Source of the DNA: Tetramitus jugosus
Lineage: Eukaryota; Protista; Heterolobosea
Assembly (NCBI GenBank): GCA_937625935.1
Contig: OW569346.1
Coordinates: forward strand, 623,803-687,802
Direction: 5' to 3'
Length of the DNA: 64,000 nucleotides
Shown: positions 21,112 through 64,000 of the stretch, piece after piece
How the letters are laid out: each line of letters begins with the position of its first letter
How positions within the stretch are numbered: the first letter of the stretch is position 1
Translations under genes and position numbers: made by a program
Notes under the pieces: model-generated
What the model saw: the letters and a program-made list of their open reading frames with translations, nothing else
The model's database searches: none
Told to the model about the DNA's origin: nothing

Positions 21112-22155
21112 TTACAAAGTAAAGATACCAGCAACACCAACTTCTCCAGCACTGTAGGATGATCTATTGTAGCCAGGATCGTTGACGTAGAAGGTAGATC
21201 TATCAGCGCTGACACCAGTTGCCAACACCCAGTGACCACCTCTGTTGACATTCAAAATGACAACATTGTTGGCACAAATGTGCTTGGCAATCTCAGCCTT
21301 GCTAGATGGTTGACCAATGTATCTGAGTCCGAATCTGGAGACAGATCCCCAGATGAACAAGCTTCCTTGGTATCCACCATTGCTTCTCAAGAATGAGTTC
21401 AAGGTACCTGGATTTGGAGATTGACCATTGACAGACTTGCCCAAGCCGTTCAAAGCCATGGAAACAGAGCTCATCAAGCATCCAATTCTGCAAACAGAGG
21501 AACTGCCCAAAGCATTGCCTCCCCATCTACCATCGCATTGCTTGAACAATGGATAGTTTCTGGTCTTGCAGGAGCCGGCACCACCGCCGCCGCCACCGCC
21601 ACCACCACCAACAACAGTGACAAAGTTGGAAGCGACCCAACCATTGGAAACAGAGTACCAAGTGTAACCGCAGCCACTCTGGGACTTGCCAGTGTACTTT
21701 GTGGTTTGACCAGAACCCAATCCAGCAACAATCTTGTATGTGGTGCAAGGACCGGAACGAACATTCAATCCAGTGGTAGCACGCAAGGTGGCACCATTGC
21801 TAATGGATGAATCAGAGAGAATCTCAGAGTTGTCACTCAACACAGAGGACTCATCTTCTTCAATCATGTCGGACAAGACGGCTTCTTGCTTTTGAACGTC
21901 CTTGTTCAACAATTGTTGAGAAATCTTGTCCAACTTGTTTGTCAATTTGGACAACTTTTTTTGCCAGTCGAGCTTCTTCTTTTCAGGGATGCAGGACTTG
22001 ATGCATTCGACAACTTCTTGTTGAGAAGGCTTGGTAGCAGCACCAGTGGTGGTAGAGAGGCACTTGGCAGCACAGGAAGCAGTGGCGCTTCTAGCAGAAG
22101 CAGCAGCAGCAAACAGAGCAACGAGCAATAAGAGGGACAGAATGACCTTTCTCAT
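21112..22155 (-). CDS. Secreted SH3b + peptidase C39-like (papain-fold) protein, putative cell-wall hydrolase
   Basis: Start MRKVILSLLL at 22155; Cys-containing and acidic pro-region; SH3b (GLNVRSGP...TWY...GWVASNFV); poly-Gly linker; catalytic domain PLFKQCDGRWG, IGCLMSSVSMAL, GGHWVL, YVNDPG (Q/C/H/D). Confidence 0.8.
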   Translation of the reverse strand: MRKVILSLLLLVALFAAAASARSATASCAAKCLSTTTGAATKPSQQEVVECIKSCIPEKKKLDWQKKLSKLTNKLDKISQQLLNKDVQKQEAVLSDMIEEDESSVLSDNSEILSDSSISNGATLRATTGLNVRSGPCTTYKIVAGLGSGQTTKYTGKSQSGCGYTWYSVSNGWVASNFVTVVGGGGGGGGGGAGSCKTRNYPLFKQCDGRWGGNALGSSSVCRIGCLMSSVSMALNGLGKSVNGQSPNPGTLNSFLRSNGGYQGSLFIWGSVSRFGLRYIGQPSSKAEIAKHICANNVVILNVNRGGHWVLATGVSADRSTFYVNDPGYNRSSYSAGEVGVAGIFTL

Positions 22156-22564
22156 CGTGATGTATGTAGTGTAGGGATAATGGTACAAAAAAAAATGGGA
22201 TGATGATGCGTTTTTTGGTTTGTGCTGGAATTTGGAGAATTTGAAGCTGCACGAAGGTTCGGGTGTGCATTGTTGCGACATCCGGATTGTAAGCTAGGCG
22301 GAGTTATGCAATCTGATCGATTACAACGGGAATGACATCGACTGTCAAGGGTCGTACGCTTTCCAATTCTGGAGATAGCGGCGCTAAAGAATACGGTGAC
22401 TTGACTACAGATGCAACCAAGTAAACTCAACCTGCCTGGCAATGCCAACTCTGGTCCAGAAGTTTGCAACAGAAGTTTGATTTTTGTCATGAATCGGAGT
22501 TCTCGTGTGAATGTCCGATCACAAAAAACAACAGAAAATCAGAAAAAGATTGTTAAGAGCAACC

Positions 22565-37074: not shown

Positions 37075-37781
37075 ATGGATTTCTTAGATTTAGATGATGC
37101 CGAAATGAGCAATGATGAATGCATCAAAATCATCGAGTTTTGTGATACGACTGAATGGCTGCAATTGAGTTATACGTGCAAAGGAATCAATCAATTCAAA
37201 TTCAATCGATTACTCATGTCAAACAAGAGGAGAACGCAGAAACTCACGTTGAATCAATGGCAGATCACTCACCGATTTCGATTGGCAGAACACTGTTCAA
37301 TGTTTGCTTGAACAAGCATCCTGAAGTGACGAATGAGCATTTCCAATTTTTGAGCGGTATCTGTAATTTGACTGGCATTCATATGCTCAACATGAGTTAT
37401 TGCAATAGTATCACAGACAATTCTCTTGTTTATCTGGCTGGTATTCACACACTTGATGTAAGTTGTTGTGATAAAATTACAGACAATGGATTCAATCATT
37501 TGACTGGAATGCGTAGCCTCTATATGAGTGGTTGCAAACACATCACAGATAAGGCATTCTTTCATTTGACTGGTATCCACACACTTGATATCAGCTATTG
37601 CAGTCAAATCACAGATGATGCATTTCCTCATTTCGTTGGCATTCACACACTGAATATGAGCGGTTGTGATCAAATAACAGAAAATGCACTAACTTTTTTG
37701 GCTGGTGTTCGTATGAGTTTTTGCAGTCAAATTACAGATAAGACGAAACAATGTTTTTATCAAAGAATATTGAGTAGTTGA
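37075..37781 (+). pseudogene. Frameshifted F-box/LRR gene
   Basis: Degenerate F-box-like start (IIEFCDTTEWLQLSYTCK) in one frame and tandem 22-aa LRRs (LTGIHTLxMSxCxQITD) in another. Confidence 0.65.
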
Positions 37782-41429: not shown

Positions 41430-42180
41430 ACCATTGTCTCACCAGTGTGTGTGGATGTCATCCACGGTAACAGCCACATCAGATCCACAGAAGACCGCTT
41501 CGTGCACGATGCAAACAAACAACACACATAGAACTGACCACCATTGTCCACAAACAGTCTGATAGTCCAATGACACACTGATCCACAAACAGAGTAGTCC
41601 TCTAGAAAATCTCTTAATGATTCGTATGTTGGAGTTGGACAACCTCCCTTGATTCTCGTACCATTGGCCCAGTACTTTGCAAACATGTTCAGGTGATAGA
41701 GATGGGTCATCTGTTGCCAGATCATCGATCAATCGACAACATGTACTGTAAATCACATCAATGATGTGATTGATTTCGATCATATTGTCTCCAACGTCCT
41801 TCATGTTCTTGTTGACATTGGTGATCAAAGCTTCCGCAACCACACTTCTCAGATTCATACTATCCAAATCAAAACTACCACCCATGAATTGGCAGCGATA
41901 TGAGTCATTGCATGCAAACATTCCCCAATCACGACAATTGTCCTCAGTGTTCGATCAGTCCTTTTGCCGGTGTGTGATGTTATGCTTATGACTGTGTGTC
42001 GAATGGCCGCCATGACCTCACCATACTTGTCCAAGCATTGTTCGTGTCGACCTATTCTGGAATACACGGCAATCGACAATAGAGCAGATAAGAACATGGT
42101 CTTCGTGAACACAGACAATAGACTCACTACCTTGACCGTAGCACAGGCCACCATCGTCATTGTGTCCACATCATTCAAAT
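41430..42180 (-). pseudogene. Frameshifted orphan gene fragment, composition similar to the 54.9-59.9 kb block
   Basis: Three overlapping minus-strand frames (41855-42256, 41439-41921, 41198-41725) that read as one disrupted, intronless ORF. Confidence 0.4.
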
Positions 42181-42194
42181 ACCATGTGAAAACC

Positions 42195-42859
42195 AGCCTT
42201 GTTGAGCTGCAAGAGTTAAGTTCAGCCTCAAATGCCCTTGTATTGAATATTGGCACACTAGATAATTATTCAATTGAATCAATGTGTATGGCTGCTGCCA
42301 ATGCATCTCGTTTAGGAAAACCAGTTATACTCGACCCTGTGGGTTGTGGAGCTAGCAAGTTTCGCTCATGAGTTCGTACGTTACAATACTAAAAGGGAAT
42401 CAAGGTGAGATGGAATCTCTATGTTTTGATGACTCATCAATGTCCAAGGGAGTGGATTCATCAGGCAACTCACAAAATGGAGATTTGGTTGCAAGAACAC
42501 TAGCCTCAAGATACAAGTGCATTACTGCGATTACAGGACCCATTGATATTGTCTCTGATGGCACAAGAATTGTTCGCATCCACCACAATGTACCTCTCTT
42601 AACTAGCATAACTGGTGCTGGTTGTGTAGTTAGTGCGATCACGGGTTGCTTTGCGTCAGTGTCAGACCCCTTGGTAGCTGTTTCAACAGCACTTGCTTAT
42701 ACAGGCGTGTGTGCTGAGATGGCCAGTAGTCAACCAGATGTTGGACCGGCTTCCTTTAACTGCCAGCTACTCGACATGTTCGCTCGTATACCATCCAATA
42801 TCTTCAGACGCGAAGTCAAGTTTTCCTTGGCAAACTTTGAGACACAAAAGTATTGTTAA
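42195..42859 (+). pseudogene. thiM: Hydroxyethylthiazole kinase (ThiM/Thi6 C-terminal domain) fragment
   Basis: ALVLNIGTL, KPVILDPVGCGASKFR, ILKGNQGE, KGVDS, AITGPIDIVSDG, ITGAGC; N-terminus missing, deletion/frameshift at ~42368. Confidence 0.85.
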
Positions 42860-48751: not shown

Positions 48752-48960
48752 TGGACTGCCACACGGTATGAATGGCTGTAATCAAACAACAGACAATTCC
48801 TTTGCTTATTTGAAGGGTATTCACACCCTCTTTTTGAGTGAATGTGACCAAATTACAGGTGATGGATTTTCTAATTTGACTGGCATTCATATGCTCAACA
48901 TGAGTTATTGCAAATCACAGATGATGCATTTCTTCATTTGGTTGGCATTCACACACTGGG
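48752..48960 (+). pseudogene. LRR gene fragment paralogous to 37155-37781
   Basis: Same repeat (LKGIHTLFLSECDQITG, LTGIHMLNMSYC); the nucleotide stretch aatttgactggcattcatatgctcaacatgagttattgcaa is shared with ~37364-37404. Confidence 0.65.
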
Positions 48961-49351
48961 TTACCCAACAAGTTCTAACATATGATCGAGAGCTCTTATC
49001 TGTTGAACCAAGTCCGAAAATATTCCATTGTATGGATAGGATTCTTGCCTTCCTAACTGGTATGATGGAATTTATGCATGAACCATGTTACTTTTTTAGG
49101 AAAAGTAAAATACGAGTATTCCAAAGCAACCTGATGATTTTTCATTGCTGAAAAAAATGAGCCGAAAATGTTGAATACAACATCCGATTCACCATTTTCA
49201 CAACATGAAAAATCATATTTATTCGAACCCCATAATGAGAATGCATCTGAAAGTCTTTATTTTTTTCAAAAGAAGAAGGTGTTTATTGTATAACTGGATA
49301 CTCATGACAAAAACGAATCATAAGAAAGTTGAATGTTGAATGCATCGGTCG

Positions 49352-50065
49352 TTAGGCTGTATCTTTTATTTCTTTTCTCATTTCTTGTGCAACCCGTATG
49401 CCCGTCAGAAGGAGTATCAAGAGGGGAATTAACAAAGTGATAATCAAAGACCATACTGAGGGTCTAGCTAGTGGTGAGAAATTTCTAAACTGTTCCTCAA
49501 TCGAAGCAGGACTGGCCATCATCATAGATTCCATTCACTTGGGGGAACCTTCAAATCAGGGGAAATTTGATCGTAGTCCGAGAAAGTAACATCGTTGTTT
49601 AGATTTATGAACTCATTTATAGAAGACAACAAATCTTTGATAGACTTAGTTCTCAAGGGTTCATACTCAGACTCCATGAATCCTCCTTTCCCAAAACAAG
49701 TTAAAAGGTGATCAGCTGACTTCATACCAAGTCGTTCGAAGTGAACAATACTGTCCTTGACATAAGCTTGTGATGGAAGAAAAAGCTCTCCTCGAGTCAA
49801 CACGAGGATGACAGGAGGTGGTTTCTGAAATAATTCGAAATTACAAAAAATTGGTAGCTTTCTGTGTGATACTTCTTGATGCTAGTTGCCTCCATGACAA
49901 AGATTATCAGGGCTACATTGTTACGATCTTCAACTATTTTTTTGTAAATCTCTTGCTTCTTCGCAAGGACTTCCTCTCTCCTTGGTGGAGGGAAGCAGAA
50001 CTCTACAAAATCATAAGAGTCTGATTCGGGTTCCAAGCAATCAATTATTGCTGTTTTACCTTCAC
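49352..50065 (-). pseudogene. Disrupted tail-anchored protein gene fragment (possibly P-loop GTPase C-terminal half)
   Basis: Three consecutive frameshifted ORFs (49797-50081, 49522-49803, 49352-49534) ending in a C-terminal TM helix; the 5' end is cut by the TIR element. Confidence 0.4.
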
Positions 50066-50675
50066 TATAGCAATTTTCCAAAAAGTGTGACGTTTTTTGA
50101 GCGTCAAAAAAACAGAAATCAACGCTCCAAAAAGTTGTAAATCACAGTTAAATCAGGCTTTGCTCCAATTTCCAGTTGAATTTCCTCGCACAACCTCTTT
50201 TCTTCATCTTCGATAGCGTGAGCAACAAGAGGGGAATGTACTCAATTCCTTTCTTCAACAGTTGGACAGCTTCTTCATACAAGGCAAGTCAAATTTAATC
50301 TTCTAATTTGACCTTGTCCACGATGATTTTTGTTTTAGAAGTAAACACAGATCCACATACATATCACTTCTCTTCTGGAACCTGATAGTCACTCTTCCTC
50401 ATCAGATGAAGTGGATTGGTCATCAAAATCGAGCTTCTGGGCAACAGATTCGAAGCTTTCCTCTTTTCGTGCTGCACCTCAAGTCTAATTGCATTCAACT
50501 CAGACATGAACAATAGCATAAGTGCAGGTGATATCAATCCATTCTCCCTCCACTGCAAACGTCTTTGAGCTGATGAACAGTATCTTTCCCATCCTTTTTC
50601 TACAAATAAACGCTCAAAAACGCAAAAAAACACAAACCAGAAAAAAAACGTCACACTTTTTGGAAAATTGCTATA
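50066..50675. mobile_element. 610-bp element with 33-bp perfect terminal inverted repeats (MITE-like)
   Basis: TATAGCAATTTTCCAAAAAGTGTGACGTTTTTT at 50066-50098 and its exact reverse complement at 50643-50675; the outermost TA on each side could be a TA target duplication. Confidence 0.6.
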
Positions 50676-50985
50676 ATATAACCACAAACGATTACGGTTG
50701 GTTTTAAGGAAGTTTGAATCTTGATTACACAATCTTCGGTCATTGGTATCTCGTTCAATTTGTTGTTTTTTGTGCTGATATTTGGTTTTTGAGATGTTCA
50801 ATTACTAACGGAGGGCTGATTACAATAAGATTCACTGATTCGAAAAATTGAAAAAAGGAAGGAGTATATTTACAAGAGAATTTGATCGGCCATAGTTTTC
50901 GTGTCCTCCTTCATTCCTCACTAGAAAAGACTACAACAAAAAAACATAACAATCGTTCATAGAAAGAAAGCACAAGCATTATACC

Positions 50986-51879
50986 ATGGTTATTCCATTA
51001 TTAGCATTAGGAGGCGCTATGTACTATGGGTACAAAAAATACGTGAGTACAATTTGTTCTTTTTGCAACATTATTTAGTGAATCTTACACATTGGTATTT
51101 AGCAATCATGGGTTGCTCCAAAGAGAATAATTGTTTTTGGGTTGAGAGCTTCTGGTAAGGTTTGTAAGACTTTTTGCCCATTTTCATTCTCATGAATCAT
51201 GTGCTCACTTTCTCACTACAATTACATATTTAAGACCTCATTGATCAACGCTCTGACTGGGAGTGATGAAGCAGTGGGAAACGATCAGACTAAGAGCGTC
51301 ACTTATCGCAGAAAGAATCAAGACTATCAACTCTGGGATACACCTGGTCTCAATGATTTTGCCGCACTAGATTTACCTTCAGCAGTTATTTTGAATTCAC
51401 TTACAGATTTGATGAAGAATACATCTGAGGGTGTCAATTTGTTGATTTTTGTGGTAAAAGTTTCAGAACTGAAAAAGCCTGAAATCAGAAATCAATATGA
51501 CTTGATTGTTAGCCAACTGACTCAGAATAGAATACCAGTGATATTAGTGGTGACCCACTGTGAGCAAAACATTCAAAGTGAAGGAACCTTCGAAGAAAAG
51601 TGCCAGTCAATGTTCGATAGTTGCAACTCCATCAAATTGGAAGGAATGAAATTTTGTTCTCGAGTTGGTACTTGCTTTGCTTTTTCTGACAGAGGAAAGA
51701 ATGGGGAGCTTGGAAATCAATCGGCAAACAAGGTTTGGGCTTTGATTGAGGAGAGGGCAAATGATTCTTATATTCCTTACTTCTCTCGTTCTTCGGGCAC
51801 TGAGTTAATGACTCTCTTTGAACGTCTTGGATTTAATTCTGAACAAGCCAAAAGGAGCGCAGAGCAACTCGTGTCCTAG
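50986..51879 (+). CDS. AIG1/GIMAP-like P-loop GTPase with N-terminal hydrophobic segment
   Basis: Exons 50986-51042, 51103-51159, 51235-51879 restore G1 GLRASGK/T; G3 DTPG; G4 VTHCE. Confidence 0.8.
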
Positions 51880-52388
51880 AATAAAAAATTCTAACAAGTA
51901 AACCCATAGCTACGAATATAATAACAACCATCATCATCAAAATAATAGAAAAAGAAGCAGCCATTCTGTGGTAATGCAACTCTTTTCGAAGCAAACTTTC
52001 ACCAATTACCACAAAGACTTCTCAGGTATTGCAATATGAAGTGAGTGAGTGGAACACTTTCTTGGACAAATACAAGGATCATACAAACAAGACGAGAACT
52101 TTTTGGAAGTCCATGATTTTTATCCATTTTAGTGAGGTAGGGTATCTAGAAAGTAGGTAAGAGGGGAGTTAAGGTATCTAGAAGCCTCTTTTTGAAGCCT
52201 CTTTTTTCACCTTTTAGATATGATTCAAAAGGTCCAGAGCTCTGCGGGGTGGAACCCAGATGAGACGGAAGATTTTTAACTGATATGTTAGCAGAAGTGA
52301 GATAGATGCGCTCTGTCATTTCCTAGTTGACCCCGTATGCCACTCTGGGCCAGCTCATGAGTCATCAACTGGGTAAAATTATGAGGAT

Positions 52389-52630
52389 AACAACAGATTT
52401 GTCTACTACCTGGTAATCAAGACAAAGCAGTACCTGAAGCATAACTTTCAAACATTGGAGTCAAGTATCACAATGATCAGGAATCACATGATTACTGACG
52501 ATGTTCATCGATTGAGCAAACCAGTGATCTGATCGGATGTGGATTGGATCAATTACAGTGAAATCTAGTCAACAACATTATTAATCAAGTGTTCCATGGA
52601 TTGGATATCAAGATTTGTGAGTGCATAAAT
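52389..52630 (+). pseudogene. TARG1/OARD1-type macrodomain remnant
   Basis: NNRFVYYLVIKTKQYLKHNFQTLESSITMIRNHMITDDVHRLSKPVI-[TGATC duplication 52525-52534]-GCGLDQLQ*NLVNNIINQVFHGLDIKI matches the TARG1 C-terminal half (YIYYLITK...LSMPRIGCGLDRLQW...VF...DIKI). Confidence 0.8.
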
Positions 52631-52897
52631 TACCTTCTTCTACTGCTAGCACATCTACAAGAGGTCGTTCCAGAGGTGAAAACAAACAAAGAGGAAACAG
52701 AGGTGCAATAAAAGAGGTTGTTGATCGGCTATCATGGCATCGCTTCGAAATGCCAACGACCGTAACTTGTATGAATCGTATCAAGTTGATAGATATCAAA
52801 GTTATGATCATAGGTATGCGATTACTGTGACACATGAACTGTATTGATTCTTTTATCAGCACAAGAGAACTTATGTCCAGTGATGAGAAGACTGTAT

Positions 52898-53762
52898 TTA
52901 TTGCTCAGTCATGCTTTTCAATTCGGGTCTCTTATTGTTCGGGTTGATCCAAACTTCATTGAAACCTTGATGACCAAAATTTTGCAAGTAAATAAAGCCT
53001 TTCTCTCGTAACAATTTACGACATTGCTCATCCTTTTCTTTCGATTCTTCTCTTCCATTCAATTCAATCAAAATGGCATAGACAGGAACAGAGTCAAATG
53101 GATATGTGGCCAAAACTTCATACTCTGCACCCTCTACATCGACTGAGAAAAAGTCCACTCTCTTCAAGTTGGCTGCTTTCACATACTTTCGAATGGGGCT
53201 GCACTCAAGTGTCCAAATCTTTCCTTCTTTCCAAACTTTCTGATGGTAAGAATCCAATGTATCCTTCCTAGCTGCCATCGCTCCATGACCAATCATCTCA
53301 ATCGTTCTCTCTTGCATACACACTGCTCCTCGAACGGTAACAGCCTTTGGTCTATTGCGTTGAAGCGTTGCAAAAGTGTCTGGCTGTGGTTCAATCAACA
53401 AACCGTTCCAACCCAAAGAATCCTCATAGAATTTAGAGTTGGAGTATTTTAAACCATCAAAGGCTCCAATCTCAATAAATGTGCCATGATGCAATGGAGT
53501 TTCATCCTCCTTCATAAAATACTTTAGCATCAATTGATCTTCCTTGGCTTGTCCATAAAAAATGTACTTGTCTGGTTGTTTTTGTTGATCAACTGTGACC
53601 ACTCTCTGCTTTGTGCCTTCCGTCGATAAAAACGTTTCACGAACTGGATATTTCTCTCTGTTGGGAATCACCATTGTTGTGATGATGATCTGGTAGCTGA
53701 CCAGAAGGGATAACGACAAAGATGAACAATATTTTCAAACGGAAAATCACTTTGGTCCACAT
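52898..53762 (-). CDS. FkbM-family (Methyltransf_21, Star-like) methyltransferase, type II membrane anchor, 1-nt frameshift near 53708
   Basis: GTFIEIGAFDGLKYSNS, WNGLLIEP, VDFFSVDVEGAEYEVL; removing one base at ~53707-53709 joins MWTKVIFRLKILFIFVVI to LLVSYQII. Confidence 0.85.
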
Positions 53763-53864
53763 TCCTTTGAAAGGAAGTCGCGAATCTTTCAATTGTCAAA
53801 GAAGTCATGATTAGGAATGAAACGGTAACAATTTTACAGATACTTTAACTTATGCAAGACATAG

Positions 53865-54300
53865 TCGCAATGATTATATGAATCAAAGCATTGTTTGCCC
53901 ATTGGTTTGCGATTTGTGTTTTCTTCCTTTTGATCTTTCACTGGTACTTTGTTTTGTGTCTGAGTCCAATAACACATAGGACAATTCTTCAATAGGTACA
54001 TTCAAGAGATAGAGGTATGTTTCTCACATACATCTTCCAATGGAAAAAATTCTTTTGCCAGTTGTTTTACAAAGTCTACCTGACGAACACTTGACCATTT
54101 TGCTTGTTATAGACAACTCTGGCATTATGAGCGAGCAAACTCATTAAGAAAATGAGGATCGCAATGTTGTATGCCATGATCCGATGTCTGTAATAACAAG
54201 TGAGAATTGATCTATTCGCCTCATGAACAAATCCTGAAGTTTTATTGTAAAACCAAAATGCTTCAGGTAATCTTGTTCAAATAGTTTTCAAACTTGAGGG
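53865..54300 (-). mobile_element. Degenerate piggyBac-like transposase, C-terminal part
   Basis: Manual translation PEAFWFYNKTSGFVHEANRSIL...YRHR...IFLMSLLAHNARVVYN...DFVKQLAKEF...CPMC...CFDSYNH fits piggyBac PxxxxxYNxxMGGVDxxD...NAxxxY...F...LA plus a Cys-rich C-terminus; contains frameshifts. Confidence 0.65.
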
Positions 54301-54842
54301 TTGGTATCAAACAATTTCGTTTTTTTCATTCTAGGTATCATCTGAACTGTGGTGTTTGTTTTCACGCCTCAGCACTGGTTTATTAACATCGGAAACCATC
54401 CTTCTATATAGGTGTAACTAAAAAGGAAGGAATCTTAATAGGCAATGGGCTCAAATTTCAAACCTATAGGGGTGAGGCTCCCTGGGAATGAACATAAAGT
54501 GAGGGTTGAATCTGATATGGTGCAATGCTTTCGTCCATACAAATTAGTTGGGTTGGTTTCTTGCAACTTAAAAATTGTTGGTAGAGGACAGTTGGATCCA
54601 TTGCTCGATGGGAGCGTCCAGATATTATTTCTTACGGCCCCCCTAGGGAGGGTCTGAGAAATTTATTCAAATATTTATTCATAGGGGGTCTCTTGATCCC
54701 AATCCTAGTAGGAGAATTATTCGCTCGAATTTACAGGAAAATATGTTATTCAAATTTATTCAAAACAGGCAGAGAGGTTCAAAAATGAATATAATATCTG
54801 GACGCTCCCGATGTTCAAATTTAAACAACGAAACATTGGTGT

Positions 54843-54862
54843 GGGTTGGGTTTGGGTTTGGG
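54843..54862 (+). repeat. Interstitial telomeric 20-mer GGGTTGGGTTTGGGTTTGGG (copy 1)
   Basis: Direct read; same strand and unit as the terminal telomere. Confidence 0.9.
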
Positions 54863-55932
54863 ACTATGGGCGTGACAAGACTGTTTTCGATGCACTGGAA
54901 GCCAGACAGAACACATTGAAGATTTTCGAATCTGCGAAAGATGCTATCTGTGTCGATGGCGATCCGGAATATGTATCCAAGTGTTTGCGTGAGCGCATGG
55001 ACATTGAAGTAGACAGTCTCAAGGCTATACGAGCCGAAAGTACAATCGATCCAGGACGCATGGCTCTTGCCGTTAAGAATGATGGAAACATGCCACAGGA
55101 TATGTTGGCACACAAGATCACCGAGAATAGCGATACGGTGTACAATCCACATTTGATTCCCAAGAATAAGGAAGATTATGGTGCAGTGTTCGATGAAGAT
55201 GTCGATGACCAAGATGTTGTCTTTGAACGTGACGACGAAGAGGAGTTGAGCGAGGCCCACCTTGATCCATTCAGTTATGCAACCAACATTGACACCGTGG
55301 CAAACTCACAGCTTGTCATGGTATCTATTTTCTCCATGTGCCAACAACGGCTTGCTAAGGACAGACGCAAAGGCAATGAGACACAGTATCTGCTGAATAT
55401 GCCAGCATACGGTGCTGCACAAATAGCTGGAGAACTATGCGAACCAGATCCAACTGATCATACACACCGCCTCTGTGCATGTGCGGGAGACTATATACCA
55501 GGCGATAGTTCGCCTGAGAATATGCGCAGAAACCGATGTATTGCGTTCAGAGACACCAAATCACGCATTACACTTAAAGAATTCACTCTGGACTGGCTCA
55601 AGAAGGGAGAACCTCTTCCAAAAGAACGATTTCCGTGCATTTTGTGTGTGCGGATGGGTGTATCAGCGTACATCTGGGCACTCAAAGCAAACAACGAAAT
55701 GCGGTCAGAGTTTGTTGCACAGCCACATGCTAATACCACTGGACGTGGTGGGTACAGACCTGAAGTGTTCATCCCACAGACGCGTACCTTTCATGGTCTC
55801 GTTTCTCACTTTGTGCGCTACAGGGCTGATGACTACATTGAATCTGACTGTGTTCGGTATGCAAAGGGTAATCCGACATATCCTATTCGTGCCATTTTTG
55901 AGCGGGAGCAGCCGTCATCCACACGCCATTAG
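54863..55932 (+). pseudogene. 5'-truncated orphan Cys-rich protein, candidate large-DNA-virus gene
   Basis: Intronless ORF beginning at the telomeric 20-mer; RLCACAG...RCIAF...LKEF...PCILCVR...Q...N...GGY...HGLV motifs; no recognisable host domain. Confidence 0.5.
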
Positions 55933-55945
55933 CCAACTCGTGCCA

Positions 55946-58900
55946 ATGTGCTCGCGTGTGTGCTATTCAGTGCACCGTACGCCAAGAGACCACTGGGATA
56001 TGCTGCTCCTTAAACTAAACACGACCCAGGTCCTAAGCAAAGTGTTTCGAGACTGTGCTGACGATTCATTCAGGAGACTGCTGATGCACTGTCTGTCAAA
56101 GAATGCACTCCTACTTCCCATGACAACAAAACCTGGTTTTGTGTGTGATAAGCATGCTCAATTCGATAGCAGAGACGGATTGGTGGATGAATACATGCGT
56201 GAGTATGTTGTTCGTGTCAAGGCCAACACCGATATGAGCGAATTGAGCCGAGACTCTGGTGCACGGAATAGTGCCCTCGATGAGATGATTCTCATCGATG
56301 GGATCAGTCATGACACGGTTCGCGAACAGTTCAAGGTGCAAGACATTAGCTTTTTCCACACACCGAAGTATCGCTACTGTTACTGGAATCCATTGGCCAA
56401 ATACCGGGTCTTCAGAGAACGCCGACTATTCGACCTCCCGTTGTATTTCATTCTATGTGCTCGCATTAATCTATGCATGCATATGGTACGCCTACTATAT
56501 GACACCATCGAAGTGGGAAAACGCAATCCCTGTGCCAAAAGCGAACTTTCGTCTTCGCAATACGCCACAACTCTGTCATCAGGCAAAGACACCCAACAGA
56601 ACCGTGCTTTTGTCGAGAATAATGACAGACTCGACCATATACTCCACAACGAACACCACTACCAACGTACAGGTGGTCAGACACGTCTGACGAGCTTCAA
56701 CAAGTTCACATTACTTCTGCTACTGGAGAAGCTGGAGGAGATGCTCTACATTCATGTGCGTATCATGTGCCTAATCGAAGAGCTGTGCAAGCGTGAAGAT
56801 TCTGAATGTCTCATGTCGCTGTTCGCTAATCCGTTAATTATGAATTGTTTTGTGGGTGACATGCGTGATCGTGTATCCGTCCAGGATCTGACGAGCAGTG
56901 AGGAAGTGTTTGATGAACACGAAGCCTATGAGAAGAACACTGTCCAAATTCTGCAGCACTCGAAGAAGTTGTGTCTTATCCAACGCTGCTTCAGTGTTGT
57001 GGACAGTATGGCGGGAGTAGACAATGCTCAGTCCATCATGCACAAGACAGAAGACATCGTATTGGTGAACCTACGTCAAAGATGTCAGCATTTTGATTCG
57101 GTGCTTAGTTCAGGTGGTGTTATCTCACATCCACTAATTGCAGTGGACGCCGACAAAGGTGAAGTAGACAGAATCAGTTTAACCATCTCTCCCAAGAACA
57201 AGAAACAGAGGACAGCAGGGAAGGTTAACTCAAGATGCCTCGGACTCGTGACAACAGATGTTAGCATCATGGCACAATGTCGCAGTGAAGCGTATGGTAA
57301 AGATGCTGTGCAACTGGGCGAGTATTGCAAAACGAAGCTCGAAAGAATCAGAGCAAAAGACAGACAGCTTTTTGGACGGTTAAGTTCAGTTAGCACGATA
57401 GGTATGTCGTTCACTGAATGTACAGACATGCTTCGCGGTCTTGCATTGGACACAAGTTCTGTCGAAACCCTACACAGTCTGTTAGTCTATTTCAGACCGG
57501 ACTGTGCAGGTAGTCAATCGTTAAGACATCCCATATCGTTCCGATGTGAAACACGTCACACACTGATCAAGCAAGTACGAGCGAGTACCGAAGGACGCAC
57601 TCACTTCACGAGGTATACTGGATGTGGCCAAATGCACAATCTACTTTGCGTGTCTGTTGCGCATGAACCTTTGCATGGGTCTCGTTTTCTGGTGTTCTTT
57701 GTGGGAATTAGCAATCTCGACACTGCGATTGCATTCCAACAAGGTACGATCCTGTGTCTCTGGACAACTACCAGATCTTGATGGTTTGGAGTTTGATGCC
57801 TGTGGTCCATATGATAGAGACTTTAGCGAACGTGATGTTCATCACACTGAAGAACCACTCACACTGATTCGTGCTCTCAAATTCCAGGCATATCTTGCCT
57901 TCATGGATCATGTACCCCTTATGACCTACATTCTGGACACACACCACTTTACCGATAAACTCATCATGGAGTACCTGGATGGAAAGCACTACAGCATTAT
58001 CAAACCCACTCCAAATCGCTTCAACAACTGCCACAAGCTACCGTCTATGGAAAATGTATTGTACAGTTTGGATTACTCACGCGAGTCGTCTGATGACAAC
58101 CAGGACGACATTACCTACGCCATCAGCAAGGTACTGCCCAACATTTGCAGCTCGCGTTTCATGGAACGTATGATCATGGCCCGTTACGATCGTAATCCGG
58201 AGTTCCAACGTCTCCTCAATCAGGTACTCGAGTGCTCATTGCTCGGGCTTTATCCACACTGCAATCATCACTCCTTGCTCCAGAATCCATGCTATATCAT
58301 TTCCATGTACAATCAAATGTATAGTGCCAGTCATAAGCAGAGCCAAGTCAGTACACTCACACCAGGTCCCAAATTTAGGCATCAACTGATGCATCAAGTG
58401 GGAAAGAACGAAAAGGTGCTGATTGCTGTCATTCGAGAGTTCTTTGTTCATGCCGTGTCCGAGTCGAGTGTCGCAGAGTGGGCCATGCGAAATGTGGTAT
58501 GGAAGGAACCGCCGTTTGCTCCATGGGACGACTACAGAATACACACGCTTCATAATACTCTCTGGCGTCTCGCCTCCAGTATATGGAAAATGGAGTACAA
58601 TGGGGAAAAGATGGAGCATTGTGTATCGACTATCAGTACAACACATGCCGTGTCCCCACAACGGTCAGTTCCTGAGTCTATGCATCACAGAGCGAAAAAT
58701 GCATCGAAATGTTGTTGTGTGCCACAGAACCCGATTTTATGCGCAAAGTGGTGCTAGCCGGTCATCCAGATGCATGCCTCATTTCAGACAATGAACTGTT
58801 CAGGATCAAAAAGAGACGACAACGGAGGAAGAAGCACAAGACAGTGGCATGGAAGTCTGATCATCATAAGCATCGCACCTACGAGTACGGCTTCTGTGAA

Positions 58901-59870
58901 ATGCTTCGTAAGACTCTTACTCAGTCTTACGTCAGGCGTTGTATTGGTGCTGGTGGACCATCAAAAAGTGGATGTCCTGATGTGTTGTTAGCCCCGCAAT
59001 GGAGGACGAAGAGTGCGAAGACGAACCAGAATCCGAGACGTCCGACAAGAAAGAGATGGTTCTGGACTGTACATCCTTAATCAAATTCGACTTTAGCACC
59101 GGTGTACTTGATCAACCACTGATTGCATCCAACCCCGTTGTTGAGGATCTGAGCAAGTCCAAACGCAAAGAGCTAACAAATCGTGCAATGAACAACTACC
59201 GTGATAGCCAACGTAGCCCATGCAGCACTGAGCCGTACAATGTAATTGTGCCATTTCGTGCGTTTGGTCATCTGGTGCTTGACATGCTCAAGACCGGAGA
59301 GACCGATATGTACATGTACTGCTCGCGTTGTGCTAACTTTTGCGTCTATCATGCACTGCTTGTGCATGACGGGCACTTTGTCTGCCAACGATGTTCAGTC
59401 AAGGACCTGCTTCTATGTGTATCAACGACCACTAACACACCACATAATGAAATGCTGCCTATCAGCCCTGAGAGTGCACTATGCATTCATGAAGGTGGGA
59501 TACTGATGACAGAAAAGCCAACAAACATACTTCAGAACCGGCGCTATGCTGTTGTTAGCCAGATCAATGATCCTGACATTTACAGCCATGTGGACGGAGG
59601 GAGAAAGCCACCCAGCACAGTCAACAATGGTACATTGTCTGTTGTCTCTCGGAAAAAGGGCGGACGTGGTAAACCACCACCAGACACCAAAACACCAACC
59701 ACACAACGTGCTGTTTCGCGTGATAGTGAGTACGAAGCCCTGAAACAGACAGCACGTAACCCTGGCAAATTACGGTGTCACTTTGGTTCCTCTTTCTACA
59801 CAGTGGACACAATGGGTAAATTGCGGTCATGTGTTATGTCGAACTTGGCTGTAGCAGCCAACGAATATCT
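55946..59870 (+). pseudogene. Large frameshifted orphan gene, candidate large-DNA-virus gene
   Basis: ATG 55946 lies 14 nt after the previous stop; frames 55475-57781, 57624-58757, 58709-59080 and 58999-60030 overlap in series; motifs KVLPNICSSR, CSLLGLYPH, VIREFF and C-terminal YCSRC...VCQRC zinc finger. Confidence 0.5.
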
Positions 59871-59956
59871 TTCAAACCCACACTTTACCGAAAACCGACT
59901 GTATAATGGTGACCATGTTTGTTTGAGTGTTGTTTTGACAGTTTGTTTGTTTTTCC

Positions 59957-60037
59957 ACGAATGTCATGTGAAATGGCCTAACCAAAAATTCCTTTTTTTT
60001 TGGGAAAACGACCATGGCCATTTCACATGACATTCGT
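59957..60037. promoter_or_regulatory. 22-bp perfect inverted repeat upstream of the HMG/F-box gene
   Basis: ACGAATGTCATGTGAAATGGCC (59957-59978) and GGCCATTTCACATGACATTCGT (60016-60037), 37-nt spacer; each arm contains TCATGTGA. Confidence 0.6.
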
Positions 60038-60073
60038 TAACACCACAAGAAAAAAAAGGAATCAGCCACTAAG

Positions 60074-61105
60074 ATGAGCAAGAGGAAGGCAAAAGTAATT
60101 GAAATCGTATCTGACGAAGAAGAAGAAGAAGAAGAGGAGGAAGAAATCAAGATTAAGAAAAAGAAGACTGCTGCAAAGAAAGTTCCATCAGATTATGTCG
60201 GCTTCTGCAAAGAAGAAAGAGCAGAATTAAAGAGAGAATTTCCGGATATGAAGACAAAGGATATCGCAAAAGAGGTAAATGCCAGATGGAAGCTCGTCAA
60301 TGAGAAATATGAAGCAATGGACACGAGGTTTGATGAAATCCCACCTGAACTGTTGACCAATATTCTTGACTACATTCCAGTTGGTAGTAGGAGTGCATTG
60401 AACTTGAGAACTTGTAGTAGCCAGATTGATGCTTGCTTCAGAGAGCATAGACATTATCCACTCTATCAATACAAGTTCTCTGTGCCACAAATGATGAAAT
60501 ATTTGAGTGATAACAGCAATTTGTTGAAATCACATCAAATTGACAGCGCACTCAATTTGTCTTCAAAGTCACAAGAGTTTATTCATGCAGTGTCCCTCCT
60601 AGAACACAAGAAAAAGATTTGGGAGGAGTGGGTCGTTGAGAGTAAGGAGTACGAACATCCAACGGGTGTAAGTTTGACGCAATCTCAAAGACAAACAGTG
60701 TTTGACAATCTCTATAGCAGAGTCAATTTTGAGATGATGAATGAATCCACTGAATTCAATCATCGTGGCAATTATAGTAGCAATGTCACTACTGGTCGTA
60801 TTCGAATTGGAAACGATTTTTTGATTTCTTATACTTTCTCACAGGACGACAATGAAATTTTGGAAGGTTCTTTTTATCAGAGGAAGCGTGATCTTACCAT
60901 TAAATTTCTGTCTGTCAGGGGTAAACCAGTCAAGCATATCAGTTTTGATTGGGAGCACCGATATCCAAGAAGCAAGACGGATGGTGGTGTATTGAACAAG
61001 GTAAGAGATACATTGGGGTTGAATCAGATCCGTAATGATAACGATTTCATCGATCTTCTTACATTCGCATTACCATTTAATTGGTTAGAGCGGATGGACT
61101 TCTAA
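60074..61105 (+). CDS. HMG-box + F-box protein
   Basis: KKVPSDYVGFCKEERAELKREFPDMKTKDIAKEVNARWK (HMG/YABBY-like box) directly followed by F-box RFDEIPPELLTNILDYIP...LRTCSSQI. Confidence 0.75.
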   Translation: MSKRKAKVIEIVSDEEEEEEEEEEIKIKKKKTAAKKVPSDYVGFCKEERAELKREFPDMKTKDIAKEVNARWKLVNEKYEAMDTRFDEIPPELLTNILDYIPVGSRSALNLRTCSSQIDACFREHRHYPLYQYKFSVPQMMKYLSDNSNLLKSHQIDSALNLSSKSQEFIHAVSLLEHKKKIWEEWVVESKEYEHPTGVSLTQSQRQTVFDNLYSRVNFEMMNESTEFNHRGNYSSNVTTGRIRIGNDFLISYTFSQDDNEILEGSFYQRKRDLTIKFLSVRGKPVKHISFDWEHRYPRSKTDGGVLNKVRDTLGLNQIRNDNDFIDLLTFALPFNWLERMDF

Positions 61106-61951
61106 CGAGTATGTCTATGAAGAGTTGGGTGAAACGATCACAATGTTAACGGACTTGGGTTTTACTGCAAAAATCGGAACAATGGAAATTCCGAAAGCTG
61201 GATGGTCTCAAGTAGTTTATGATACAGTTACCGTGTTGACAATTAGTTGGTAGTGTGTTGCATGGATTTTGAAAAATAAAGACCACCTGTTTAATTTGGT
61301 AGTAATTGTTTGCTCTTTGTTGTTCAGGATTACACCGCCTGCACATTCCGAAACTCCGTCGATCTCAAAATGGAAGAACTCGTGTTTTTCGCGATCCATC
61401 AGGTCCGATCACAAGCTGTCAATAAAGTGCACCAAAAACAGTAACAACACATTACCAAACATAATAACTGCATAATTTTAGTATCGATTCGTGTTACAGC
61501 ATTGTCCTGCACAAAAACCCATGGTCAGGTACTGGACAACGATGTACCACACGGACGTGCACTCACTACGCGAAGATCCAACCTGATGGATTTCCGACGG
61601 CTTGCATCGAGCGGAGTATCAGCAGTTCAGTCCCAAGATTTTGTGACCCTCATGGTCCACTTGTTCATCAATGAAGGTGTATTCTCGAACAACAAAGAAG
61701 AAGTACCATGCAGCCCCATTGTTCATGCACTCAGAGCAATGTACATTGCTGCCAGAGAGGCTAGTGTGCAACAGATGGTTGGCGCACTCCGTGATCACAG
61801 AATTAATCAATTGAATCAGAAAAATAGTACCAAGATGCATATAAGACTGTCATCCTAGATAAGGGCACATTCAAGAGAAAGTTTAGTGCTTTGAATAAGA
61901 AAGAAGAAGAAGAGATTGAAATTGTCAAGGAAAAGTTTCGCAAAATAGGGG

Positions 61952-61971
61952 GGGTTGGGTTTGGGTTTGGG
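61952..61971 (+). repeat. Interstitial telomeric 20-mer GGGTTGGGTTTGGGTTTGGG (copy 2)
   Basis: Identical to 54843-54862. Confidence 0.9.
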
Positions 61972-62013
61972 TCTGTCTTGTTGTTAAGGAAAACCCGAGA
62001 ATTTAGCTGTATT

Positions 62014-62025
62014 TGGTATCAGAGC
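62014..62025 (+). mobile_element. Putative tRNA-iMet primer binding site TGGTATCAGAGC (LTR-retroelement/pararetrovirus type)
   Basis: Exact 12-mer complementary to the 3' end of plant-type initiator tRNA-Met; no LTR pair or intact gag-pol seen. Confidence 0.45.
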
Positions 62026-62539
62026 GTTGAAATTTACAGTTTAGTGTAAAAACAAAATTTAGTTCGGTTGAGTTGTGGCTTATAGGTTGAGGGAGTAAAA
62101 AGAAGACATATAGGACAAGGGTTGAATGGATTTTGGAGTCTATTATCAGATCGGAGATATTGAGGTTCAACGAACAGGGAGGTTCACGGTCCAGGACCGT
62201 GAAATGATTTCCTGTATTTCATCTCAGGTCATTTGTCAGTGGAGCTTTTTGGATCCAGCAAAGAATTTCGACCAATGAGCGAAGTGATTACAACGAATTC
62301 AGAAGGAATACAATACAGCAACATGAATATAACAGAAGACTTGTGAAGGAGTTCAACCTGAAATACAATGGCAGTCAATAGTTAACTATATTTTGTCTTG
62401 ATCATGATCTGTGACTACTAATTACGATTTATAGATACGCCGCAACCTGATTTTTAAGTAGTTTGATTTGATGTCTTTCTGATCTATCTGTACTAAAGTG
62501 CAAGTGCTTCTGTTGAAAAGCAGATTTCGGTTGCATCGA

Positions 62540-62753
62540 CCTCCAACCAGCATATAAACCCAAATCCCACCCTTTTTTACTTTTTGATTGTATATCTACA
62601 GAATAGGTCGTAGGGGACTCTGTAGTCATTCAATGAATCTTCAATTGAATCTCTGTTGAATCGCGAACTAATTATGTCAAAAGTACATTTAGGGTTGACT
62701 TCTCCTCCAACCAGTGTATAAACCCTTACCCAACCTTTTTTCTTTTTGACTGT
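62540..62753. repeat. Diverged direct repeat (~50 bp, ~164-bp spacing) in the telomere-adjacent sequence
   Basis: cctccaaccag-catataaaccc...ccttttttactttttgattgt (62540-62591) vs cctccaaccag-tgtataaaccc...ccttttttctttttgactgt (62704-62753). Confidence 0.6.
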
Positions 62754-62826
62754 TCAGGACTCAGAGCATTTCTACGTCAAAATTATCATATCTGTTCGTT
62801 ATCTATTGGTTCTGAAGTTATTTACA

Positions 62827-63735
62827 TGGGTTTGGGTTTGGGTTTGGGTTTGGGTTTGGGTTTGGGTTTGGGTTTGGGTTTGGGTTTGGGTTTGGGTTTG
62901 GGTTTGGGTTTGGGTTTGGGTTTGGGTTTGGGTTTGGGTTTGGGTTTGGGTTTGGGTTTGGGTTTGGGTTTGGGTTTGGGTTTGGGTTTGGGTTTGGGTT
63001 TGGGTTTGGGTTTGGGTTTGGGTTTGGGTTTGGGTTTGGGTTTGGGTTTGGGTTTGGGTTTGGGTTTGGGTTTGGGTTTGGGTTTGGGTTTGGGTTTGGG
63101 TTTGGGTTTGGGTTTGGGTTTGGGTTTGGGTTTGGGTTTGGGTTTGGGTTTGGGTTTGGGTTTGGGTTTGGGTTTGGGTTTGGGTTTGGGTTTGGGTTTG
63201 GGTTTGGGTTTGGGTTTGGGTTTGGGTTTGGGTTTGGGTTTGGGTTTGGGTTTGGGTTTGGGTTTGGGTTTGGGTTTGGGTTTGGGTTTGGGTTTGGGTT
63301 TGGGTTTGGGTTTGGGTTTGGGTTTGGGTTTGGGTTTGGGTTTGGGTTTGGGTTTGGGTTTGGGTTTGGGTTTGGGTTTGGGTTTGGGTTTGGGTTTGGG
63401 TTTGGGTTTGGGTTTGGGTTTGGGTTTGGGTTTGGGTTTGGGTTTGGGTTTGGGTTTGGGTTTGGGTTTGGGTTTGGGTTTGGGTTTGGGTTTGGGTTTG
63501 GGTTTGGGTTTGGGTTTGGGTTTGGGTTTGGGTTTGGGTTTGGGTTTGGGTTTGGGTTTGGGTTTGGGTTTGGGTTTGGGTTTGGGTTTGGGTTTGGGTT
63601 TGGGTTTGGGTTTGGGTTTGGGTTTGGGTTTGGGTTTGGGTTTGGGTTTGGGTTTGGGTTTGGGTTGGGTTTGGGTTTGGGTGGTTTGGGTTTGGGTTTG
63701 GGTTTGGGTTGGGGTTTGGGTTTGGGTTGGGTTGG
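62827..63735 (+). repeat. Telomere (TTTGGG)n, ~0.9 kb
   Basis: About 140 perfect hexamers with the G-rich strand pointing to the sequence end, degenerating after ~63660. Confidence 0.95.
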
Positions 63736-64000
63736 AATAATTAAAAAAAATATAAATCTTAAAAAAATAAAAAAAAATTAAAAAAATAAAAAAAAAAAAA
63801 ATTAAAAAAAAAATTAAAAAATATTAAATAAAAAAATAATTTAAAATAATAAAAAAAAAAAATAAAAAAAATAAAAAAATAAAAAAATAAAAAAAAATAT
63901 AAAAAAATAAAAATAAATAAAAATAAAAAAATTAAAATAAATAAAATAATAAAAAAAATAAAAAAAATAAAAACTAAAAATAAAAAAAAAAAATTCTAAT
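63736..64000. other. A-rich low-complexity tail distal to the telomere, probable base-calling artefact
   Basis: Almost only A/T, irregular T(1-2)A(n) runs directly after degenerate telomere repeats. Confidence 0.6.

Follow-up and report, generated by a model that had tools for sequence, protein, structure and literature searches.

Does a telomeric repeat beside virus-like DNA mark the point at which a virus entered the chromosome? The question is raised by a foreign block of about 5 kb (54862 to ~59900) near one end of a 64,000-nt stretch of Tetramitus jugosus contig OW569346.1 (positions 623,803 to 687,802, forward strand), called the window throughout and used for all coordinates below. The block carries co-oriented coding sequence on the plus strand in two open reading frames (ORFs), ORF1 and ORF2, and starts at a short interstitial telomeric tract. 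A preliminary description had taken it for a decaying insert of a large nuclear DNA virus that integrated through telomeric repeats in the manner of human herpesvirus 6 (HHV-6) and Marek's disease virus (MDV). A decaying foreign insert in the subtelomere is well supported and a large nuclear DNA virus is its most likely, unproven source, no viral homologue having been found; the proposed mode of integration did not hold, since a second copy of ORF1 continues upstream of the tract in frame and in non-telomeric sequence. To the joint claim that the block is a decaying two-gene fragment of a large nucleus-replicating virus and the tract a later repair scar made by the host we assign a probability of roughly 0.55. 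The copies discussed here were found by comparing the window with contigs of seven out of 18 sequencing runs: X1 and X2 (same sample, possibly the source of the window), X4 (another sample of the same study), X5 (a groundwater metagenome from a second study), X9 (another study), X3 and X13. The features of the block and its two edges are as follows.

54843..54862, plus strand: short interstitial telomeric tract of 20 nt (one 5-nt unit and 2.5 perfect units), abutting ORF1, G-rich strand toward the chromosome end
54862..55932, plus strand: ORF1, encoding the C-terminal half of a Cys-rich protein whose family is unnamed, with its 5' side cut, assigned from relatives, alignment and upstream continuation
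55946..57743, plus strand: ORF2 piece a, ~600 codons, block-type codon use, no known relative
57744..57774, plus strand: frame change 1 of ORF2, at a GT..AG segment of 31 nt, a length that matches the shift; old frameshift or candidate intron
57775..58558, plus strand: ORF2 piece b, holding SLLGLYPH and ending at a 136-nt deletion (from P0001, P0011 and X5 contig 25)
58559..58993, plus strand: ORF2 piece c, with an in-frame TGA at 58673-58675, ending where other copies hold ~500 more letters
58994..59900, plus strand: ORF2 piece d, holding YCSRC..VCQRC, right edge of the foreign block, where the G+C content (GC) falls to host level
59957..60037, no strand: 22-nt perfect inverted repeat at the right edge, a local inversion site between versions (in X4 contig 13, 59979-60020 is reversed and ~210 more letters are present)

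The foreign block and its telomeric junction

The existence of the block and its foreign composition were confirmed. GC was 0.459-0.480 in the five 1-kb bins from 55001 to 60000 as compared to 0.358-0.456 in the 55 preceding bins (host ~40%), rising at the telomeric tract and dropping to host level near 59800-59900. The k-mer comparison proposed as a check likewise distinguished the block from the host, with a dinucleotide delta* of 107 versus 21.5-73.6 in 11 host 5-kb bins and a tetranucleotide distance of 28.5 versus 10.8-17.3. CGN and AGR codons for Arg numbered 88/30 in the block and 291/306 in 19 host ORFs (Fisher p=2e-7); of the codons said to be enriched, CGT (0.33 versus 0.14 of Arg codons) and CGC (0.20 versus 0.08) were, whereas ACG was not (0.15 versus 0.14 of Thr codons). 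Leave-one-out codon tests classified 19/19 host ORFs, the HMG-box gene beyond the block included, as host-like and 4/5 block pieces as block-like.

Several further traits had been offered as marks of the block. The ~5 kb of co-oriented coding sequence was confirmed on the plus strand from 54865 to ~59900, all three Cys-rich or otherwise conspicuous motifs (PCILCVR, YCSRC..VCQRC and SLLGLYPH) are present, and none of the 5 block pieces matched a Pfam family, in keeping with the statement that no eukaryotic domain is recognisable. Trinucleotide tracts are indeed absent, but not significantly so (P about 0.12), 3 of the 11 host 5-kb bins lacking them too. Being intronless does not set the block apart: most host ORFs in the window are likewise long and uninterrupted, and frame change 1 coincides with the GT..AG segment. 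The tight gap between the two ORFs, given as 14 nt, is 13 nt in the window; X2 and X4 contigs carry 22 extra letters at 55891 that are missing from the window, which by hand reading place the ORF1 stop at 55899-55901 and widen the gap to ~44 nt. Such window-only differences could be alleles or consensus errors, and Logan contigs drop variants.

That ORF1 is cut exactly at an interstitial telomeric repeat was borne out, with one base (54862) common to repeat and gene. The 15-nt core of the tract occurs twice in 62.8 kb, where 4e-5 occurrences are expected, and the expectation for the 20-mer is 3e-8. In Naegleria gruberi, TTTGGG has been reported as a candidate telomere repeat (PMC3622300). X2 and X4 contigs match the window from 54862 on and have different, non-telomeric sequence before it, 1642 letters of it in one X4 contig. 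The 30 upstream letters shown are open in the ORF1 frame, and the last upstream residues of this second copy (hand translation) run into the first codons of the window as the same motif does in the relatives P0008 and P0009 (alignment columns 401-425). Because the second copy continues ORF1 in frame without the repeat, the foreign DNA originally extended further, with no telomeric repeat at 54862; since the tract moreover lies inside a gene, it marks a later mid-gene break and not the end of the element. A longer copy of ORF1 is seen in X2 and X4; no contig spanning the junction is listed.

The tract reads one way only, toward the chromosome end, and so is neither a telomere added to the ORF1 fragment, which would run the other way, nor a fusion of telomeres, in which the repeats would meet head-to-head. 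A short tract at a repaired break and the stub of a former end that captured the terminal segment fit the data alike. A second tract closer to the telomere (61952-61971) is identical over 20 nt, and in each of the two a single 5-nt unit follows a G/T-rich seed. Since X3 contigs join 61972 to several other places, tracts of this kind are recurrent at subtelomeric joints. On its right, beside the HMG-box gene, the block has no telomeric repeat; this edge is shared with X4 (one contig runs from 58691 to 61300) and is the older boundary. Taken together, the junction is very probably secondary and made by the host, and not the product of telomere-mediated integration.

A host repeat in telomere orientation, with the block ~3-8 kb from the chromosome end, would also be expected if a virus with TTTGGG arrays of its own had recombined with the host telomere and the tract were the integration junction. 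We regard this as highly improbable for a tract of only 20 nt that lies inside a gene and is missing at that place from the second copy, the more so as a host-type HMG gene and the second identical tract lie between the block and the telomere, whereas the arrays of MDV and HHV-6 sit at the genome ends beside packaging signals (PMC5537665). It is also unlikely that the assembly joined two real loci through the short repeat, as the lack of a spanning contig, the presence in X4 of only the other upstream sequence and the low-complexity, A-rich last 260 nt of the window might suggest. In X1 and X2 one contig starts exactly at 54862 and another carries the alternative upstream sequence, as expected for two sequences before this base; window-identical contigs lie at 54055-54637, 56093-57303 and 58425-58587, and short-read contigs are expected to break at a telomeric repeat.

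Decay of the two genes

ORF2 (~55946-59900) is split into four pieces by three frame changes and contains one in-frame stop. At least three frameshifts had been reported; the three changes of frame are there, but the breaks are not simple frameshifts. Break 1 may be a predicted intron or an old frameshift: its segment (AAG, then GTACGA...CAG) is one of only 2 of this kind in the block, is shorter than the host introns seen, and shows no indel at 57744-57774 in the X1, X2 and X4 contigs. Break 2 is the 136-nt deletion at 58558 in the window, the missing part being kept in P0001 and P0011 (~45 more residues) and in an X5 contig. At break 3, X4 has 536 letters between 58993 and 59068. The previously unlisted stop at 58673-58675 has C as its first base (T>C) in X2 and X9. 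The 3' end is uncertain, other contigs lacking 4 nt at 59725 and 15 nt at 59847.

The high-copy repeats that are prominent in X1, X3 and X5 do not stand out by depth in X4, where 52688-53609 and 58691-61800 have high depth. Judged from contig depth alone, X4 could be an RNA library and would then give a hint of transcription through the 3' part of ORF2.

Between the X1, X2, X4, X5 and X9 contigs and the window, versions of the block differ by few substitutions and many deletions. The larger ones are 99 nt at 55656 (X1, X2 and X4), 136 nt at 58558 and ~500 nt at 58993 (window), and 1513 nt from 54979 to 56493 (X9); further differences are the 22 nt at 55891 and 4-15 nt at several places. An intron was considered for the X9 joint and rejected, the ends being AG..CC with 12 letters between; the X9 contigs have low depth and do not demonstrate transcription. 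Distinct contigs establish at least two versions of the block. Depth in X2 steps through 19, 34-39 and 62, as for one, two and three copies, contig depth not being copy number. Pieces of the right half are also found in the groundwater metagenome X5, which places the insertion before these strains split; X5 does not cover 54993-57758 and X13 covers the HMG gene only, neither of which demonstrates absence of the block.

The broken block had been contrasted with an intact UBR4 gene. The UBR4 frame is open over 3936 codons, but the host side is not pristine: a hydroxyethylthiazole kinase gene is split, and the flank at 49-54.6 kb, which contains two miniature elements, differs between versions by many indels, so that decay is also a property of this subtelomere.

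The following course of events would account for these observations. A piece of at least ~7 kb would have entered the subtelomere next to the host HMG-box gene. The insert is now present in at least two versions with many deletions and few substitutions, and in the window version everything upstream of mid-ORF1 is replaced by host DNA that ends in 20 nt of telomeric repeat. This state may reflect terminal-segment capture, in which an eroded or freshly healed chromosome end was joined to the broken ORF1, or else a join across a large deletion with telomerase-made filler. Both genes would be dead and under removal by deletion.

The ORF1 family and the source of the insert

A HMMER search with ORF1 yielded nine proteins, eight of them true relatives (E 5e-33 to 2e-11, 27-40% identity, 161-763 aa), six of which are 441-763 aa long and match through their C-terminal part. 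The ninth, P0010, is a repetitive yeast protein with a match of 46 residues only and was dropped. In the alignment, N-x-C, C-x-x-C, G-(G)-Y and P-Q are conserved, which makes the C-terminal part of the family a likely metal-binding domain, as predicted from sequence. All eight relatives stem from Logan, ENA or JGI/IMG, i.e. metagenomic sources, with no informative names and none from NCBI or UniRef. Their GARP/FYMINK ratios of 0.28-3.07 (very AT-rich to very GC-rich amino-acid bias) and N-terminal basic clusters would suit nuclear proteins from a range of viruses or hosts. In a tree of 10 rows ORF1 fell into no supported group. Two structure models of ORF1 reached a mean predicted local distance difference test (pLDDT) score of 50.8 and 49.8; with these low-confidence models no BFVD match was obtained at E<=0.001, and the best PDB match (Z 4.4) lay on one helix.

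An insertion of 24 residues sets P0007 apart from P0002; the codons that could encode it leave room for a GTTAGT/GTTGGT donor, a CTGAC branch site and a TAYAG acceptor. Read from the protein alone, the insertion appears to be a retained 72-nt spliceosomal intron, which would point to a nuclear setting, equally of a virus or a host. Mirusvirus introns are of the GT-AG type with a length peak near 80 bp, and nucleocytoviruses are mostly devoid of introns, pandoraviruses, some chloroviruses and decaying endogenous elements being exceptions (PMC12768974). Spliceosomal GT-AG introns are common in two orders of the Mirusviricota, but not exclusive to them.

Searches for a viral identity were negative throughout. 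Pfam gave no match for 5/5 block pieces and no curated-threshold hit in the 8 ORF1 relatives; the best PHROGs match (HNH, piece c, E 0.016) was not accepted, the best NCBIfam match had E 0.053, and PDB sequence profiles gave 0 matches. The ESM Atlas held no usable match for ORF1 or ORF2 piece a, and a phage tblastn search with P0011 gave no match. Word-based protein searches returned only the near-identical copy, only P0002 itself, or nothing among longer proteins, and found no relatives of ORF2 beyond the near-identical copies P0001 and P0011. Pattern scans were negative in 8/8 cases for viral contigs and in 2/2 for genome contigs; those of metagenome contigs were negative or gave one match of 22 residues, which lay within an unrelated 417-aa ORF and was dismissed as a chance hit. 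As the scans missed P0002's own contigs, all of this is weak evidence. The motifs were absent from the supplement files searched, 11 of 19 from PMC10132985 and 9 of 10 from PMC12768974 (first 400 characters per cell, the largest files lying outside this search). Genes for the HK97 major capsid protein, portal, terminase and triplex proteins were not recognised in the block with libraries that hold no nameable mirusvirus-specific profiles. Features of the Nucleocytoviricota are a double jelly-roll capsid, the A32 ATPase, polB and VLTF3. The preliminary description was right that no hallmark capsid or polymerase gene is visible; none emerged from the family, fold and viral-contig searches.

The viral origin is accordingly one that we infer, because no family, structure or virus contig matched. 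For it speak the metagenome-only relatives with their wide amino-acid bias, the intron-like insertion in P0007 and a pattern as in Acanthamoeba. Several points weigh against the reading as a viral fragment with a secondary scar. No viral homologue, hallmark gene or fold was found in the family, structure and viral-contig searches; nothing ties the ORF1 family directly to a virus, its relatives being known as proteins without surrounding DNA; the intron-bearing relative fits an ordinary eukaryotic gene equally well; and ORF2 has only its near-identical copies. ORF2 piece c was neutral in the codon test (-0.004), and CpG in the block was 0.73-0.90 with no depletion, so that long methylation-driven decay is not evident. 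As to the junction, no listed contig of the runs compared spans it with 31 letters on both sides; its support comes from contigs that start exactly at 54862 in X1 and X2, which may be the window's own source.

The same secondary scar could also sit in a block that is foreign or fast-evolving and not viral, such as a patchy eukaryotic gene pair or the cargo of a large mobile element from another protist, now decaying. The absence of any viral match, the apparent spliceosomal intron in one relative, a possible ORF2 intron with a host-like GTAYG donor and the fact that intron-richer 'viral' candidates of Acanthamoeba were often judged to be host genes (PMC12210455) would agree with such a source, but 0/8 relatives come from NCBI or UniRef, no transposase or other Pfam domain is present and the composition is unlike that of all host ORFs tested. 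We consider it a possible explanation, though less likely than the viral one. Returning to a viral source, a tentative and rather speculative extension is that ORF1 and its eight relatives mark undescribed, intron-bearing, mirusvirus-like nuclear giant viruses of freshwater and soil protists, with this TTTGGG-telomere protist as a host, and that their remains are cut up and moved between chromosome ends via short telomerase-made tracts, with the states before and after in one culture.

The chromosome end and comparison with known systems

The window covers the final 64 kb of a eukaryotic chromosome arm, in which ordinary genes (UBR4, Gpi1, Utp12, kelch, ankyrin) continue up to the telomere; the right end of the block lies ~2.9 kb from the (TTTGGG)n array. 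The features around the block are the following.

54610..54809, no strand: high-copy miniature element of 200 bp, bounded by perfect terminal inverted repeats of 19 nt, close to the left side of the junction
60074..61105, plus strand: HMG-box gene of host type, linked to the block (PF00505, E 5e-8; host codon use)
61952..61971, plus strand: second short telomeric tract, identical to the first by repeat comparison, at the start of the subtelomeric repeat
61972..62826, no strand: subtelomeric repeat common to many places (10-20-fold depth in X1, X3 and X5; several joints from 61972)
62827..63733, plus strand: terminal telomere, 152 units of TGGGTT (repeat scan)

The miniature element at 54610-54809 has GAT on both flanks (a 3-nt flanking repeat), ends in GGG...CCC, is found with many differing flanks before 54610 and reaches ~25-fold depth in its X1 bin; we take it to be a PIF/Harbinger-like candidate. 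A second miniature element (50066-50675) has 33-nt perfect terminal inverted repeats, and X1 and X3 contigs skip 608 letters with TA..TA ends, so that an empty site exists. Host genes are intron-poor, the few introns read by eye being ~50-185 nt long with GTAYG or GTATT donors. The hydroxyethylthiazole kinase gene (41907-42856) is split over two frames near 42360 with no convincing intron among candidates of >=21 nt, and may be a pseudogene, contain a tiny intron or reflect an assembly error. At 61445-61860, at inversion joints between versions, lies a small stretch whose GC is raised (0.48 at 61500-61800) and whose codon scores are neutral to block-like; it may be another scrap of the foreign DNA. 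Elsewhere in the window, 48780-48960 is a decayed copy (67-84% identical) of the 66-nt leucine-rich-repeat array of the gene at 37 kb (37364-37690), and a host gene at 21115-22293 with bacterial SH3 and C39-like peptidase domains is possibly of bacterial origin, judging by these domains. The A-rich, low-complexity letters beyond the telomere (63740-64000) are probably read-end noise. An Rfam search of 49000-62800 gave 0 matches.

A literature search on endogenous viral sequence, telomeres and Heterolobosea genome assemblies found no report; viral genes are reported not to be enriched among the methylated genes of N. gruberi and N. fowleri (PMC12344493). In MDV and HHV-6, virus-borne telomeric arrays at the genome ends drive integration (PMC5537665). 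The locus resembles MDV and HHV-6A/B in having a host-type telomeric repeat beside putative viral DNA near a chromosome end (telomere at 62827-63733), and differs in that the repeat interrupts a gene and is missing from the longer copy (PMC5537665). Where these viruses bring a terminal array of their own, the second copy has no repeat at the site, and in place of a near-complete genome with packaging signals there are 5 kb with two broken ORFs and a repeat that abuts mid-gene codons.

Degraded subtelomeric giant-virus inserts in Acanthamoeba castellanii strains Neff and C3 are alike in forming small foreign clusters near chromosome ends with telomeric repeats and mobile elements, and in their partial copies, deletions and pseudogenes (PMC12210455); the general phenomenon is thus already described there. 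Those inserts have viral best hits and methylation data, whereas the best hits here are unnamed metagenomic proteins, and the telomeric tract exactly at a mid-gene break, with the unbroken version in the same sample, distinguishes the present locus (PMC12210455). The mirusvirus integrant LE-Chr15 of Aurantiochytrium limacinum shares the foreign GC and the position at a chromosome end, attributed to subtelomeric recombination, but spans 269 kb, has genes for capsid, terminase, portal and polymerase, and lies between ribosomal DNA/LORE-TEAR arrays, as compared to 5 kb with two broken genes and no hallmark gene here (10.1101/2023.06.15.545109).

If the insert is viral, it connects a protein family known only from the environment, and still without a name, with a protist host in culture, and provides a marker for finding the virus. 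The locus gives a base-resolution view of how subtelomeric foreign DNA is fragmented, with a telomeric tract at a mid-gene break and the unbroken copy available, and cautions that a telomeric repeat beside virus-like DNA need not mean integration of the HHV-6 type. The tract itself resembles the short interstitial telomeric sequences at repaired double-strand breaks, which consist of few near-exact one-way repeats with loss of flank and minimal shared base and are absent from the other version of the locus, as seen here for the right-hand side (second ORF1 copy) only (PMC8537989). Those sequences occupy internal sites in vertebrates with short flank changes, whereas here, in a protist subtelomere, the whole upstream flank has been exchanged (PMC8537989).

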